NCBI GenBank assembly: GCA_965226495.1
Contig: OZ245365.1
Coordinates: forward strand, 4,736,001-4,800,000
Reading direction: 5' to 3'
Length of the DNA stretch: 64,000 nt
Source: Candidatus Marinacidobacterales bacterium
GTDB taxonomy: Bacteria > Acidobacteriota > Vicinamibacteria > Marinacidobacterales > DATDRI01
Made by a program: the position numbers and the translations under genes
The notes under the pieces: generated by a model
Told to the model about the DNA's origin: nothing
Seen by the model: the letters and a program-made list of their open reading frames with translations, nothing else
Databases searched by the model: none
Shown here: one piece after another, positions 31,405 through 36,019 of the stretch
Layout: the number at the start of each line of letters is the position of its first letter
Numbering within the stretch: position 1 is the first letter of the stretch

Positions 31405-33480
31405 ATGAGATACGGTCTCGGCATTTTGCTCAGCGCTTCGCTGGCTGGTGGTTGCGCGTCGCTCGACTACACCGAACTCCGCCCCGACCAGAAGTTCGCT
31501 CGCCTGATGATGCTCGAAGACGAGCGGTCCCTGGGCGCCGGGGAGGTCGTCACCCGACTGAGCGACCCGAGCCATCGGATTAGGCTTCGCGCCGCTCTCG
31601 CCCTCGGCCGGATCGGCTACACGGCGGGAGAACCGCATTTGGTCGCCACGCTGTCGGACTCCGATCCGGACATGCGAGCAGTAGCGGCTTTCTCCTTGGG
31701 ACTTCTCGAAGGACCTCTTTCCGACGAGGCCTTGGCGGCCCTCGAAAATGCCTTGTCCGACGTCGATGCAGAGGTCCGAGGCCGGGCGGCAGAAGCCCTC
31801 GGTCGAAAAGGAACCGACCCGGTAGCCTTTCAGATCGGTGCCGGGCTTCGAGCCCGTCTGCCTCGCGGAACGCCCCCCCGGGAATGGGGTGAGGACATAG
31901 AGCGTTCCCAACCGAAGATGCCTCATCCGGATCTCCGGCTCGGTCTATTTGCACTCGCGCGGAAGAACAATCTCCGATCGGCGTGGAGCATTTTGGCCAC
32001 CGAGCAAAGTCAGCCTCGCTTCATTTGGTGGCCTGCGGCTTGGTCTAGCGCGCAGTTCAAAGCCGAAGAGCTCGCACCGCTTCTACTTCACTATGCGGGC
32101 TCGAGCGACCCCTACTTACGAGCGCTGGGAGCGAGAGGGCTGGCGCGTCTTCCGCGCGAGCAATCCGCGCAAGCCATCGTCCAACTGCTCACCGACCCCG
32201 ACGAGAAAGTCAGGGTCGAGGCGGTGCGCGCCGCCGGGACGTTGGGTCTCAGCACTTCCGTCCCCCGCCTGCTTCAGCTCGTGGCAGAGGACACCCCTTA
32301 TGTGAAAGTGGAAGCGATCCGTGCGTTGGCAACCTTGCCGGATCCACGAGCGGTCGACCCGCTCATCTACCAAATGTCGGACCCCAATCCGTGGATCCGT
32401 TCCGCCGCGCTCCGGGCGGTCGCCTTTCAGGACCGAGCGAGCTTCTGGCTCCTCCTGTCAGGGATGGATCCAGACGGTGACTGGAGCGTGCGGGTCACCT
32501 TGGCCAGCCTACTCGGTCAAATCAGGGGAGACCGAGCTACCGCTCTGCTCAAAGAGATGGTTGACGATCGAGACTTCCGCGTGCGTCCGGCTGCGATCGA
32601 CGGGCTCGTTCAAGCGTCTCCGTCCGAGGCAAGGCCGATCGTCTTGGAGCATCTCAAGAGCGAGGACCCGTTTGAGCGAGCCGCCGCTGCACGCGGCCTC
32701 GGCGAGCTCAAACCCGAAGGGGGTGTCGCTCGGCTCCTTTCCGCGCTCGAATCCTCGCTCCGGGAGGACGTCTCCGATCCGGGGCTCGCGATCCTGAGCG
32801 CCCTCGAACGCTATGGGACCGAGGCACTCAAGCCAGGGGCGCAGTTAGCCCTTCAAGATCGCTCCTGGCTCGTTCGCAAACGCGCCGCCGAAGTATTGAG
32901 GGACCTCGGAGAGGAAACCGCCCGCGCCGAGACTTTGGAGACTGATCGAAACCTCTATGACTATATGGACCTTCTCAATCCGCCCTACACACCCCACGCG
33001 TTCATCCGCACCGAAAAAGGAATCATCGAGGTCGAGCTCTTCATCATCGATGCACCGGTAACGGTTGCCAACTTCATGAAGCTGGCCCGTGAGGGGTTCT
33101 ACAACGGCCTGAGCATCGACCGAGTCGTCCCAAATTTCCTCATCGAGGGGGGCGATCCAAGAGGCGACGGACACGGCGGCCCGGGTTATACCGTGCGTTC
33201 CGAGGTCAACCGTCGGCCTTTCCTTCGAGGAACGCTGGGCATGACGCTCCCAGGTGGCAAAGACACAGCGGCTAGCCAGTTCTTCATCACTCACCTCCCA
33301 CAACCTCAGCTGGCGGGGACCTACACTCCCTTTGGACAGGTCATCAAAGGGATGGACCTAGTGGACCGATTGGTGCGCGGCGACGTCATTCAGAAGGTGA
33401 TCATCTGGGACGGAGTCACGGCCCCTTCCGGCCCGACTACTAGCGCCGGTCAGCCCCCGTCGAATAATTCCATCTTCTAG
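31405..33480 (+). CDS. lipoprotein with HEAT repeats + C-terminal cyclophilin-type PPIase
   Basis: Lipobox LAGGC; many VR..AA.ALG repeats; AP.TV.NF..LA..GFY, RVVPNF...GGDP.GDG.GGPG, SQFFITH. Confidence 0.9.
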   Translation: MRYGLGILLSASLAGGCASLDYTELRPDQKFARLMMLEDERSLGAGEVVTRLSDPSHRIRLRAALALGRIGYTAGEPHLVATLSDSDPDMRAVAAFSLGLLEGPLSDEALAALENALSDVDAEVRGRAAEALGRKGTDPVAFQIGAGLRARLPRGTPPREWGEDIERSQPKMPHPDLRLGLFALARKNNLRSAWSILATEQSQPRFIWWPAAWSSAQFKAEELAPLLLHYAGSSDPYLRALGARGLARLPREQSAQAIVQLLTDPDEKVRVEAVRAAGTLGLSTSVPRLLQLVAEDTPYVKVEAIRALATLPDPRAVDPLIYQMSDPNPWIRSAALRAVAFQDRASFWLLLSGMDPDGDWSVRVTLASLLGQIRGDRATALLKEMVDDRDFRVRPAAIDGLVQASPSEARPIVLEHLKSEDPFERAAAARGLGELKPEGGVARLLSALESSLREDVSDPGLAILSALERYGTEALKPGAQLALQDRSWLVRKRAAEVLRDLGEETARAETLETDRNLYDYMDLLNPPYTPHAFIRTEKGIIEVELFIIDAPVTVANFMKLAREGFYNGLSIDRVVPNFLIEGGDPRGDGHGGPGYTVRSEVNRRPFLRGTLGMTLPGGKDTAASQFFITHLPQPQLAGTYTPFGQVIKGMDLVDRLVRGDVIQKVIIWDGVTAPSGPTTSAGQPPSNNSIF

Positions 33481-33488
33481 ACTCGTTC

Positions 33489-34322
33489 ATGCCCCGCTTC
33501 CGCCTCTTGGCGATTGATCTGGACGGAACTCTCCTCAACTCGCAACGAACGGTGCCGGAAGCAAATCGGCGCGCGCTGGAACGAGCGCAGCGACAGGGAG
33601 TGAAGCTCGCGGTGGTGACGGGGCGGCGACTTCCCGCCACCCGACCTTCTCTGGGCGGGCTGAGCCTAGAGATGACGATGGTTCTGAACGGAGGCGCGTT
33701 GATCAGCGAAAGCCTCGACGGGCCGATCGTGAAACGAAACCTGATGCCCCTCGCACTGGGCAAAGAGGTTCTCGGTTTGGCACACCGGGTCGGAGTCGCT
33801 CCCGTCGTCCACGATGGCCCTAACGGAGAAGGCCGCCTGCTGATCCAATCAGGGACTCCTGTGAGTCGCCCGCTCGAGCTCTACCTGGACAAGACGACGC
33901 CTCCCCCCGAATGGGTTCCAGACCTCGCCGCGGCCCTCTCGCGCGATCCTGTCCAAATCATGTTTGCCGGCACCGTCCAGGAGATTCGCGCCGCAGCCAG
34001 CAAGCTCGAGGATGCACTCGGCGCCCGGGTCAGTGTCGCTCGAACGGAGTACGAGATTCCCGATTTTGCTCTGCTGGACATTCTCGCACCGGGTGCTGAC
34101 AAAGCCGAGGCCCTGCGTTTCCTATCGGCAGCGGAAGGTGTGCCGTTCGCCGAGATCATGGCGATTGGAGACAACTGGAATGATCTGGGAATGCTGGAGG
34201 CGGCAGGATTCGCGGTCGTGATGGCCAACGCCGCTCCCGAGCTCCGTGCGCGTGGTTTCGTGGTAACGGGAAGCAACGACGAGGGCGGTGTAGCACAGGC
34301 GATCGATCGATATATTTTGTAG
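33489..34322 (+). CDS. Cof-type HAD-IIB hydrolase
   Basis: DLDGTLLN, VTGR, NGG, DKAEAL, AIGD.WND..ML, MANA. Confidence 0.93.
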   Translation: MPRFRLLAIDLDGTLLNSQRTVPEANRRALERAQRQGVKLAVVTGRRLPATRPSLGGLSLEMTMVLNGGALISESLDGPIVKRNLMPLALGKEVLGLAHRVGVAPVVHDGPNGEGRLLIQSGTPVSRPLELYLDKTTPPPEWVPDLAAALSRDPVQIMFAGTVQEIRAAASKLEDALGARVSVARTEYEIPDFALLDILAPGADKAEALRFLSAAEGVPFAEIMAIGDNWNDLGMLEAAGFAVVMANAAPELRARGFVVTGSNDEGGVAQAIDRYIL

Positions 34323-34343
34323 CTAGCTAGAACCGCCGAGCAC

Positions 34344-34373
34344 AAAAAAAAGGGGGTGAGTTCATCACCCCCC
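34344..34373 (-). terminator. Rho-independent terminator of the Lys-rich micropeptide gene
   Basis: Minus strand GGGGGTGA-tgaac-TCACCCCC followed by T8. Confidence 0.9.
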
Positions 34374-34399
34374 GCTCTCGGTACCCCTGAGAGAGTCAG

Positions 34400-34462
34400 T
34401 TACTTCTTTTTCTTGCTCGCCTTTTTCTTGGCTGTCTTGGCTTTCTTTCTGCGCTTTGCCAT
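34400..34462 (-). CDS. 20-aa Lys/Arg-rich micropeptide MAKRRKKAKTAKKKASKKKK
   Basis: AGAGGAGG 8 nt upstream of ATG; own promoter and terminator; 13 of 20 residues K/R. Confidence 0.8.
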   Translation of the reverse strand: MAKRRKKAKTAKKKASKKKK

Positions 34463-34658
34463 AATTGTCGCCTCCTCTCTATTTAGGGGTTAGGCATTGG
34501 TCGCGACGTACGGCGCGAGCTGAAAAGTGAGCTTTCTTTTCGAAAACTATCATCATTTCAACTTTTGCCATGCGTCTCATGCCTGCCAGCTCCTGGACTC
34601 AAACAAACTGCACGTCGACCCTCCCCAAGACCCCTCATGGACCTCGAGGAAGTCCGAA

Positions 34659-34729
34659 CAACTAGCAGTTGATTGAGCCTGAGCTTGACATACTATATGT
34701 AGGATAAGGAAGCTCCCGGAACCTGTCAA
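34659..34729 (-). promoter_or_regulatory. sigma70 promoter with two NrdR-box-like operators
   Basis: TTGACA (34729-34724), N17, TATCCT (34706-34701); cores CTATATGTAG (34693) and CTAGCAGTTG (34662) are 31 bp apart. Confidence 0.65.
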
Positions 34730-34876
34730 GCATTTTTTGCACCCCGAGAGAATTGCGTCTTTGGATTGAGAGTCTTAGCCGAATGGCGTTTTACGAAACG
34801 AGAAAAAAGCAGTAAAATAGAGGGTTGGGCGAGTCGGATTATTTTTTGGGGATAGAAAAGAGAAAGTCGAGTCCGA

Positions 34877-36019
34877 TTATTCTTCGGTTTCACTGGCAGA
34901 ATATTTCGTTTCTAGCTTCGTTTTTTGTGAAGCTCGTTCTAATGCGAGCGCGATCAAACGATCGACTAACTCGGAAAACGAAAGACCGCTCGCTTCCCAA
35001 AGTTTCGGATACATGCTGATCGAAGTAAAGCCAGGAATGGTGTTGACTTCGTTCACGAAGAGCTCCCCCGTCGACCGTGAAAGGAAAAGATCGGCGCGAG
35101 CCATGCCCGCGGCGTCTACGGCAGTGAACGCGTCGATCGCCAATTGCTGAGCGCGAGACGTCGTCTCTTCATCCAAGGGCGCGGGGATCAGAAGTTCCGA
35201 GTCGTCGTCAATGTATTTTGCTCGGTAGTCATAGAACTCTCGCGAAGGAACTATCTCACCAGGCAGAGAAGCTCGCGGCTCGTCGTTGCCGAGCACGCTG
35301 ACTTCTATCTCCCTCGCGTCAATCCCCTGCTCGACGATCGCTTTACGATCGTAGCGGAAGGCTTCCCGCAGAGCAGGCGTGAGCTCGGCAAACGTCTTGA
35401 CCTTGCTCACACCGACACTCGAGCCGAGGTTGGCCGGTTTGACGAAGAGCGGATAGGAAAGGGCTTTTTCGATGACCGCGAGTACCTGTTTCGCGGCTCG
35501 ATCCCATACGTGACTGGAGACAACTTCATACGCAAGAACCGGCAGGCCGCAGTCGCGGAAGACGGATTTCATGAGCGCCTTATCCATGGCGACCGCCGAC
35601 GCCGCCACGCCAGCTCCGACGTAGGCGATTCCGGTTAGCTCGAGAAACCCTTGCACGGTACCGTCTTCGCCATAGGTTCCGTGGAGCACAGGAAACACCA
35701 CGTCCAACTGTCCCGGTCCCGCTTGAGGTCGCCAACTCGCTTGCGGTTTCTCTTGAACAAGAAGCTCCGAAGAAGTGGGGTCGGCCAGCAGCCCGATTGG
35801 CTTGGCTTCTTCACCGGCGACCCCTTCGAGGAACGGGTGCTCCCTTGCCGCGGGAAGCCGCCAACCTCCGTCTCGCCCGATCTTGAGCGGGATCACTTCG
35901 TACTTCTCACGATCGAGGGCTGCCACTATCGCCGCCGCTGAACGCAGCGAGACTTCGTGCTCCGCGGAACGGCCTCCGAAGAGCACTCCGACCTTCAGAC
36001 GCTTGGCCATTGGGATCAT
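34877..36019 (-). CDS. ddl: D-alanine--D-alanine ligase
   Basis: GGRSAEHEVS, LHG.YGEDG.VQG, MDK, FVKPANLGSSVG, FYDY.AKY, NEVNTIPGFT..SMYP. Confidence 0.98.
   Translation of the reverse strand: MIPMAKRLKVGVLFGGRSAEHEVSLRSAAAIVAALDREKYEVIPLKIGRDGGWRLPAAREHPFLEGVAGEEAKPIGLLADPTSSELLVQEKPQASWRPQAGPGQLDVVFPVLHGTYGEDGTVQGFLELTGIAYVGAGVAASAVAMDKALMKSVFRDCGLPVLAYEVVSSHVWDRAAKQVLAVIEKALSYPLFVKPANLGSSVGVSKVKTFAELTPALREAFRYDRKAIVEQGIDAREIEVSVLGNDEPRASLPGEIVPSREFYDYRAKYIDDDSELLIPAPLDEETTSRAQQLAIDAFTAVDAAGMARADLFLSRSTGELFVNEVNTIPGFTSISMYPKLWEASGLSFSELVDRLIALALERASQKTKLETKYSASETEE

Follow-up and report, generated by a model that had tools for sequence, protein, structure and literature searches.

The operators through which NrdR acts are described as two 16-bp boxes separated by a linker of 15–16 bp, with C4, A6, A8, T9, T11 and G13 conserved and about 63% A+T from C4 to G13; C4 and G13 are critical for binding, A6 and T11 are apparently critical, and A8 and T9 are not strictly needed, as other middle dinucleotides can be tolerated (PMC13584703). 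Here we analyze a tandem operator resembling these sites in a 64,000-nucleotide stretch of DNA (the window) from a Candidatus Marinacidobacterales bacterium (contig OZ245365.1, positions 4,736,001 to 4,800,000), where it precedes not a ribonucleotide reductase (RNR) gene but a gene for a 20-residue, lysine-rich micropeptide. Small polycations and tiny open reading frames (ORFs) in long transcripts have been described in other settings: the bacterial H1-like polycations include Hc1 and Hc2 of Chlamydia and AlgP of Pseudomonas; the basic ribosomal proteins bS22, bL37, bTHX and eL41 have 24–33 residues; and the hok- and aapA1-type toxin mRNAs have a long 5′ untranslated region (5′UTR) and a Shine-Dalgarno (SD) sequence sequestered by the 3′ end.

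The genome carrying the window is called G000, the families compared are called f1, f2 and f3 (f1 and f2 fall within one Acidobacteriota order; f3 is the sister family), and coordinates are window positions. With the NrdR operators of RNR promoters, the micropeptide promoter shares a pair of 16-bp boxes, each partly palindromic and the two separated by a 15-bp linker, located over the −10 hexamer and start site, the bases C4, A6, T11 and G13 in both boxes, the presence of nrdR, and a box sequence that is almost that of the lineage's own class II RNR promoter. It differs from them in that the target is not an RNR and box 2 has a weak score and lacks the central AT; also, the RNR boxes of f1 and f2 are located upstream of and abutting the −35 hexamer, whereas the micropeptide box is located over the start site. 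The peptide resembles the H1-like and protamine-like polycations in being Lys/Ala-rich, low in complexity, repeat-prone, variable in repeat number and free of hydrophobic residues, but it has only 15–36 residues, no proline, no other domain and no Pfam family. With bS22, bL37, bTHX and eL41 it shares a similar length, high positive charge, its own small gene and a strong SD; in contrast to these, its length and sequence are not fixed, it has several paralogues, among the genomes searched it is found in two families only, and it has no NCBIfam match. Like type I toxin mRNAs and dual-function small RNAs (sRNAs), the transcript has a long structured 5′UTR, a tiny ORF and an SD predicted to pair with the 3′ end; unlike the toxin mRNAs, it encodes a hydrophilic polycation, has no conserved antisense partner and is transcribed from a locus that is syntenic in the chromosome. 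The micropeptide gene is real and previously undescribed: we found nothing in the literature on such a peptide or on the order Marinacidobacterales, and nothing joining NrdR with lysine-rich peptides or small ORFs, although non-RNR sites might appear in the bioinformatic supplements to the papers on NrdR.

A conserved gene for a lysine-rich micropeptide

A first-pass annotation of the window had proposed a complete, stand-alone gene that ORF callers miss, and all of the elements of the unit lie where it placed them on the minus strand (34729..34343): a TTGACA-N17-TATCCT promoter, a leader of about 230 nt ahead of the ORF, a ribosome-binding site, an ORF for a peptide in which 13 of the 20 residues are basic (11 K and 2 R) and a GC hairpin followed by T8; each of these items proved accurate (Table 1). 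The promoter is of the sigma-70 type and matches at 10 of 12 positions; three promoter-like sites were found in a 3-kb scan vs 0.5 ± 0.6 in shuffled sequences, and an alignment of 23 sequences shows little or no variation in TTGACA and TAT.CT. The strong SD (AGAGGAGG) ends at 34471 and the ATG follows 8 nt on, at 34462. The terminator hairpin (34373–34351) has nine pairs, six of them G-C, ahead of the T-run. Because terminator-like sites as a class are not above chance in a 3-kb scan (2 found vs 3.8 expected), this terminator counts through its conservation; the 3′ motif CTCAGGGGTANNGAGAGNGGGGGTGA is kept across f1 and f2.

In a DNA search, the unit was found in 23 of 41 related genomes, that is, in 6/7 for f1, 16/17 for f2 and 0/16 for f3. 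The f1 genome in which it was missed (G007) is unpublished and 83% complete; it is included in the tallies of the 41-genome, class-wide motif, SD-pattern and nrdR searches, and no G007 sequence was analyzed. All 20 fetched loci contain a K/R-rich ORF that starts with MAK after GAGAGGAGGCGA, which occupies the SD position in nearly all loci. An exact scan for the 3′UTR motif, using one genome per species, returned 24 loci, all but one of them titled Acidobacteriota (Candidatus Marinacidobacterales, Vicinamibacteria). An ORF and a promoter box are found at fixed distance beside 43/43 motif matches; the same order of parts recurs in these matches and in all 20 loci, so the unit is more than a chance arrangement. 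When the motif was scanned class-wide with up to two mismatches, it was found in 6/7 genomes of f1 and 18/19 of f2 and, among the genomes sampled, in 0/28 of f3 and 0/346 of 21 other families; the reversed pattern, used as a control, gave 0 matches, and G000 itself misses the pattern because of one extra G. A second, independent pattern (the SD plus MAK[K/R]) was also found in 0/28 genomes of f3. The exception in the exact scan (L031) is a 2,555-nt contig titled Gemmatimonadota with a unit almost identical to that of f1 (MAKRRRKAAKKSKKKTSKKKK, same leader); this contig is probably mis-binned, rather than a sign of the gene in another phylum.

The copy with the long leader is syntenic. It is convergent with a gene encoding a Cof-type HAD hydrolase (TIGR00099, 145.9 bits) in 17/20 loci, and its upstream neighbor is ddl in f1 and tgt in f2. 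Genomes of f2 have one or two extra copies elsewhere, with unrelated leaders of ~100 or ~175 nt, so that a genome may contain up to three paralogues.

The ORF is, judged by its pattern of substitution and codon use, very probably a real translated gene. The 29 distinct ORFs (15–36 aa) encode K (60%), A (25%), T (8%), R (4%) and S (3%) with traces of V and M; all four Ala codons are used, and pyrimidines at codon positions 1/2/3 number 15/223/143. The other two frames would read R/Q/P/L or E/S/G/C with stop codons. Among pairs of equal-length ORFs up to 25% apart, differences at the three codon positions number 11/15/33, and the codon changes are 24 synonymous vs 17 non-synonymous; these pairs are not independent, and two pairs that involve L038 look indel-shifted (without them, the counts are 19 vs 6). 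The ORFs change in length by gain or loss of KKKAT-like units with their composition kept, which indicates selection on composition and charge rather than on exact sequence. Apart from rare V and the initial M, the peptide lacks hydrophobic residues.

The unit is also found on contigs of its own in RNA libraries. Twenty sequencing runs contain part of the stretch, and 10 of them are on record as RNA; contigs from four RNA runs in three studies were aligned (Table 1), the libraries that contain them being of sponge and marine samples. Every aligned contig is located wholly within the predicted unit, and contigs from two studies end at the same base (34684), ~10 nt inside the predicted start; the coincident ends are a weak hint. 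Contig cover is confined to 34366–34689, and from missing cover it does not follow that the flanks are silent. The same runs also contain contigs with the versions of the unit found in relatives; in one of these, 6 nt of the ORF are deleted in frame and the leader is a different one. Thus, conservation, coding-type substitution with codon phase and stand-alone contigs in RNA libraries bear out the annotation's claim of a complete gene.

Tandem boxes at the promoter and the NrdR regulon

The annotation had also noticed two CwA-N4-TwG cores 31 bp apart at this promoter, the first over −10/+1. They are present as described, CTACATATAG (34702–34693) and CAACTGCTAG (34671–34662) being separated by exactly 31 bp, and they form the centers of boxes 1 and 2. 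Using 33 distinct RNR-promoter boxes from relatives, with G000's own left out, we constructed a palindromized position weight matrix (PWM) with 18 columns and scanned G000. Among 6.3 million positions, box 1 of the micropeptide promoter has rank 10 (16.5 bits), compared with rank 2 (19.4 bits) and rank 6 (17.8 bits) for RNR boxes; the pattern ACAT[AC]TAGTA has two sites in the 6.3-Mb genome, in the micropeptide and RNR promoters only. Across 30/30 non-redundant loci, box 1 has scores of 12.3–20.1 bits (tail at most 1e-5), and in all 31 non-redundant units it is the best PWM match in the 330 nt before the start codon. The six conserved positions (C4, A6, A8, T9, T11 and G13) are all present in the window and in 28/30 loci; taken singly, C4, A6, A8, T11 and G13 are each found in 30/30 and T9 in 28/30. 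The fraction of A+T between C4 and G13 is 0.62–0.88 in 30/30 loci. Conservation of box 1 is as high in its untranscribed half as in its transcribed one, and this favors a real operator.

The best second box within +30..+33 is located at +31 in 29/30 loci. In box 2, C4, A6, T11 and G13 are present in the window and together in 28/30 loci (C4 in 28/30, A6 in 28/30, T11 in 29/30 and G13 in 29/30), and at least 5/8 of the positions between C4 and G13 are A+T in 24/30 loci (exactly 5/8 in the window). The second box is also located at +31 in paralogues with otherwise unrelated leaders, as CCATATCTTGT in L012/L013 (6/6 positions) and as CACATCTAGT in L116/L117; that the paralogues with short or intermediate leaders keep both boxes favors a DNA operator over an RNA element. 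The likeness of this tandem operator to NrdR sites is well supported by the sequence comparisons, and the micropeptide gene is probably controlled by NrdR.

The regulator is available. The annotation had held that absence of nrdR from the genome would count against its reading; nrdR is found in G000 (TIGR00244, 193.9 bits, cut-off 124.65) and in 41/41 relatives (40/40 without G007). The single RNR of G000 is class II and B12-dependent (NF005122, 1294.6 bits); NrdD was not found in this genome. Upstream of the RNR gene, tandem boxes exactly 32 bp apart are found in 25/26 relatives, for example, CCCCCTACATTTAGTGGG with AACGCAAAATCTAGTATT in f2 and ACCACAACCAGTAGTGGT with ACCACTACATCTAGTGGT in one f3 genome. 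At the RNR promoters of f1 and f2, including that of G000 (L047:1200-1330), the boxes are located upstream of the −35 hexamer, with box B abutting it, and a 5′UTR of ~200 nt follows; the RNR boxes of f3 are of the classic CCACAAnnnnTTGTGG type.

A further tandem pair identified with the same PWM, GCCCCAAGATATTGGGTA and TAAACTAGATCTTGGGGG (14.4 and 12.0 bits, 15-bp linker, 6/6 conserved positions in both boxes), is located in G000 at C1:1994356-1994404 (L119:857-905), between the gene for carbamate kinase and hpt (hypoxanthine phosphoribosyltransferase; TIGR01203, 183.6 bits). This makes hpt a second candidate for a non-RNR member of the NrdR regulon, and a perfect tandem pair in this position means that control by NrdR beyond the RNR genes would not be isolated in G000, which again favors a real operator at the micropeptide promoter. 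A single NrdR-type box with a high score (15.8 bits) is found in the intergenic region before a recN-like gene (TIGR00634, N-terminal 232 aa) at C1:2420355 (L122:856-873); because a tandem partner is lacking, this may be a chance match. We also considered whether the box marks a large regulon and rejected this, as CTACAT.TAGT has just one other site in the genome.

A conserved tandem operator before a gene that does not encode an RNR would widen the NrdR regulon, since the recent literature treats NrdR as RNR-specific. If control by NrdR is real, the regulon would gain in the micropeptide gene, together with hpt of the same genome, its first non-RNR member with good support; and the locus, with a strong box paired with a weak box, is a natural test case. 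Gene callers miss the gene and no family matches it, yet it is conserved, syntenic and duplicated and has its own contig in RNA libraries.

Transcript structure, proposed function and rival explanations

The 351-nt transcript has a predicted fold of −132.2 kcal/mol vs −103.65 ± 5.95 kcal/mol for 100 shuffles (z = −4.8), none of which is as stable. In single-sequence minimum free energy folds, two extended leader hairpins (D1 and D2) followed by the SD region occur in 19/20 long-leader sequences. RNAalifold lends support to the closing helix of D2, where both sides have changed at all six pairs (in 6, 9, 2, 1, 8 and 6 of the 20 sequences); f1 has AGGCAU:AUGCCU and f2 has GAGCGG:YCGCUC. For D1, f1 and f2 use different registers and RNAalifold on a fixed slice gave no structure; column-wise covariation is not countable. 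The RNAalifold consensus also contains a 12-pair helix between ACCCC..GAGAGGAG and the 3′UTR sequence CUCUCUCAGGGGU (columns 216–234 with 391–403). If this helix is real, the ORF would form part of a hairpin loop, its SD being hidden by that hairpin, which a terminating ribosome would melt; with such pairing, translation would probably be gated or self-reinforcing.

As the best explanation of the whole, which we put forward tentatively, the locus would be an NrdR-operated gene for a nucleic-acid-binding polycation that is coupled to demand for deoxynucleoside triphosphates (dNTPs). A strong promoter would carry a tandem NrdR operator, with box 1 covering the start site as well as the last part of the −10 hexamer, and the weaker box 2 placed 15 bp downstream; because of the position of box 1, NrdR loaded with dATP and ATP would block RNA polymerase. 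Derepression, shared with the class II RNR (and hpt), would occur at low dATP, as DNA synthesis consumes dNTPs, and would yield an mRNA with two extended 5′ hairpins of ~100 nt each. The peptide, without a fold or a hydrophobic face, would be a diffusible polycation that binds nucleic acids much as protamines or H1 tails do. Its most likely role is to bind polyanions; a function as a nucleic-acid polycation is possible, with the balance somewhat against it. Newly made DNA is rated the likeliest target because of the regulatory company that the gene keeps, a choice that is itself quite uncertain, and ribosomes or RNA, next in line, are a less likely one. The most novel form of this explanation, in which two Acidobacteriota families make a free poly-lysine 'mini-protamine' on the ribosome and NrdR couples its synthesis to dNTP demand, is doubtful; if true, it would be a bacterial counterpart of replication-coupled histone supply, and a ribosomally made polycation of 15–36 residues that is linked to dNTP status would represent a new type of small bacterial nucleoid or nucleic-acid effector. 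A role for the peptide in standing in for missing polyamines was considered and rejected, as speA (755.4 bits, above cut-off) and four ORFs with a spermine-synthase domain are present.

Several points weigh against this explanation or parts of it. NrdR is reported to require two boxes and is described as RNR-specific (PMC12051234), and it is because of this requirement that the weakness of box 2 matters. In the PWM test proposed by the annotation, box 1 stood out, but box 2 scored only −4.7 bits in G000 (tail fraction 6.5e-3), and in most loci its scores range from −5.7 to +5.3 bits (tail 2e-4 to 8e-3). Its central dinucleotide is TG in the window, and across the loci A8 is found in 3/30 (missing in 27/30) and T9 in 19/30; in 2/30 loci (L016 and L028), box 2 is missing altogether. 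The annotation's regulatory idea nevertheless stands up to the test that it proposed: box 1 ranks among the top sites and box 2 keeps the linker and the four binding positions, the weak score of box 2 being the caveat. Moreover, the loci are related, so the cross-locus counts are not independent, and assembled contigs cannot show strand, exact ends or level. In the 20 sequences, the pairs of the SD/3′UTR helix are invariant or changed on one side, with no compensatory change; as the helix is nearly invariant, covariation neither supports nor contradicts it. Searches for families lend the function of the peptide no support, as the 20-aa and 33-aa members have 0 matches in Pfam at E up to 10 and the peptide has 0 in NCBIfam at E up to 10; the evidence fits DNA, RNA, ribosomes or polyphosphate alike as the target.

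The alternative that bears most directly on the operator is that the boxes are not NrdR sites, their likeness being coincidental, and that they instead belong to the promoter or discriminator as an element of it, or serve a different regulator as its operator. We consider this somewhat unlikely. Part of the conservation of box 1 is conservation of the promoter, as it overlaps the −10 hexamer; box 2 is near background with the PWM, and in the long-leader copies it is located inside hairpin D1, so its conservation could be at the level of RNA. Coincidence would, however, have to explain a genome-wide rank of 10 with a matrix derived from relatives' RNR promoters only, the identity of the box 1 core (CTACATCTAGT) with an RNR box from a genome of f3 (L069), the exact 31-bp spacing with the four binding positions kept in 28/30 loci, and the second box at +31 in paralogues whose leaders are otherwise unrelated. 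In another reading, the peptide could be a small ribosome- or RNA-associated polycation in the manner of bS22, bL37, bTHX and eL41, with the NrdR-like boxes merely tying its synthesis to growth. The size, charge and very strong SD are like those of small basic ribosomal proteins, and the transcript is its own stand-alone unit. Ribosomal proteins, however, keep their length and sequence, whereas this peptide varies from 15 to 36 aa by KKKAT-type repeats and keeps composition alone; moreover, NCBIfam and Pfam gave no match at E up to 10, a genome has as many as three paralogues, and the searches of f3 found no copy. The ribosomal assignment is unlikely.

An RNA of ~350 nt could be the main effector, a regulatory or dual-function sRNA whose ORF only controls stability or accessibility: ~65% of the transcript is structured leader, with the low fold z-score and the covarying closing helix of D2, and the sequence of the 3′UTR and terminator is kept across families. 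The coding signature in the ORF is clear, however, and no Rfam family is matched; the paralogues retain the ORF, SD, 3′UTR and boxes and have the leader swapped for an unrelated one of ~100 or ~175 nt, which makes the leader the dispensable part and the RNA an improbable effector. A type I toxin-like module, in which a harmful polycation is left untranslated through pairing of the SD with the 3′ end until the mRNA is processed, would account for the long 5′UTR and the predicted sequestration, as in hok- and aapA1-type mRNAs; we judge it very improbable, because a hydrophobic segment is lacking in the peptide, the single promoter-like site on the antisense strand (34437–34465, plus strand) rests on bases that differ in relatives, and in both families the main copy is kept in synteny and by vertical descent. 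Least credible is an attenuator whose leader peptide senses lysine. In its favor, the ORF is tiny, is dominated by one amino acid and runs directly into a terminator, but there is no gene on the same strand downstream for it to control (the Cof-type hydrolase gene is convergent here and in 17/20 loci), the terminator has no conserved alternative anti-terminator, and a leader of ~230 nt is located ahead of the ORF. An NrdR-operated gene for a polycation remains the explanation that we prefer, at the strength given above.

Other features of the locus and its relatives

Table 1. Elements of the micropeptide unit and contigs from RNA libraries aligned to it (window positions).
Feature	Position	Strand	Remarks
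Conserved upstream block GGCTAAGACTCTCAATCCAAAGAC	34757..34780	-	GCTAACGCGTTCAATACAAAGC in relatives; about −86 to −63 from start site
Promoter	34701..34740	-	A-tract gcAAAAAAtgc; −35 TTGACA 34729–34724; 17-nt spacer; −10 TATCCT 34706–34701
NrdR box 1 ATCCTACATATAGTAT (NrdR-like)	34690..34705	-	over last 5 nt of −10 hexamer and start site
NrdR box 2 AATCAACTGCTAGTTG (NrdR-like, weak)	34659..34674	-	15-bp linker after box 1; within transcribed leader
Predicted transcript	34343..34694	-	~350 nt; start predicted ~7 nt past −10 hexamer, end at T-run
Leader hairpin D1 (predicted)	34585..34689	-	transcript nt 7–111; extended, imperfect, starts almost at 5′ end
Leader hairpin D2 (predicted)	34492..34584	-	transcript nt 112–204; closing helix AGGCAU/AUGCCU
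SD region ACCCCUAAAUAGAGAGGAGG	34471..34490	-	GGAGG 34475–34471; C-run upstream
ORF MAKRRKKAKTAKKKASKKKK	34400..34462	-	20 aa; coordinates include stop codon 34402–34400
3′UTR anti-SD CUCUCUCAGGGGU	34384..34396	-	4 nt past stop codon
Intrinsic terminator, conserved 3′ end ACCGAGAGCGGGGGGUGAUGAACUCACCCCC + U8	34343..34383	-	
RNA-library contig X1	34388–34684		297 nt; 0 differences
RNA-library contig X2	34390–34680		291 nt; 0 differences
RNA-library contig X5	34395–34617		223 nt; 0 differences
RNA-library contig X12	34370–34684		316 nt; 5 letters and 1 gap different

The conserved block upstream of the promoter, GCTAAnnnnTTCAATaCAAAG, is found ~50 nt before the −35 hexamer in all long-leader loci of f1 and f2 and is absent from the short-leader paralogues. 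Its portion TCAATCCAAAG has four sites in the genome, the other three being unrelated to the unit. The block (34757–34780) resembles no recognized known site; it is possibly a site for an activator or an architectural protein. A promoter-like site on the plus strand inside the ORF (34437–34465; TTGGCT-17-CATAAT with TG) has a −10 hexamer that is the complement of the start-codon context; as a candidate antisense promoter it was dropped, since the start-codon context on which it rests differs in relatives. An Rfam scan of 33500–35500 at E up to 10 gave one chance-level match, located outside the unit, and the window contains no tRNA or tmRNA. On the plus strand at 31405–33480, an ORF of 691 aa has an N-terminal signal-like start and HEAT-like repeats, and by eye its C-terminal part is like a cyclophilin-type peptidyl-prolyl isomerase; in relatives, too, it adjoins the gene for the Cof-type hydrolase.

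Elsewhere in G000 (C1:3745934-3746131, plus strand; L111:1513-1710), a 65-aa K/R-rich ORF with a strong SD has ends like those of the micropeptide (MAKRRKKK... ...KKAAKKKASRRRKK). It has no Pfam family above cut-off and only two homologues; it could be a distant relative or the source of the micropeptide.

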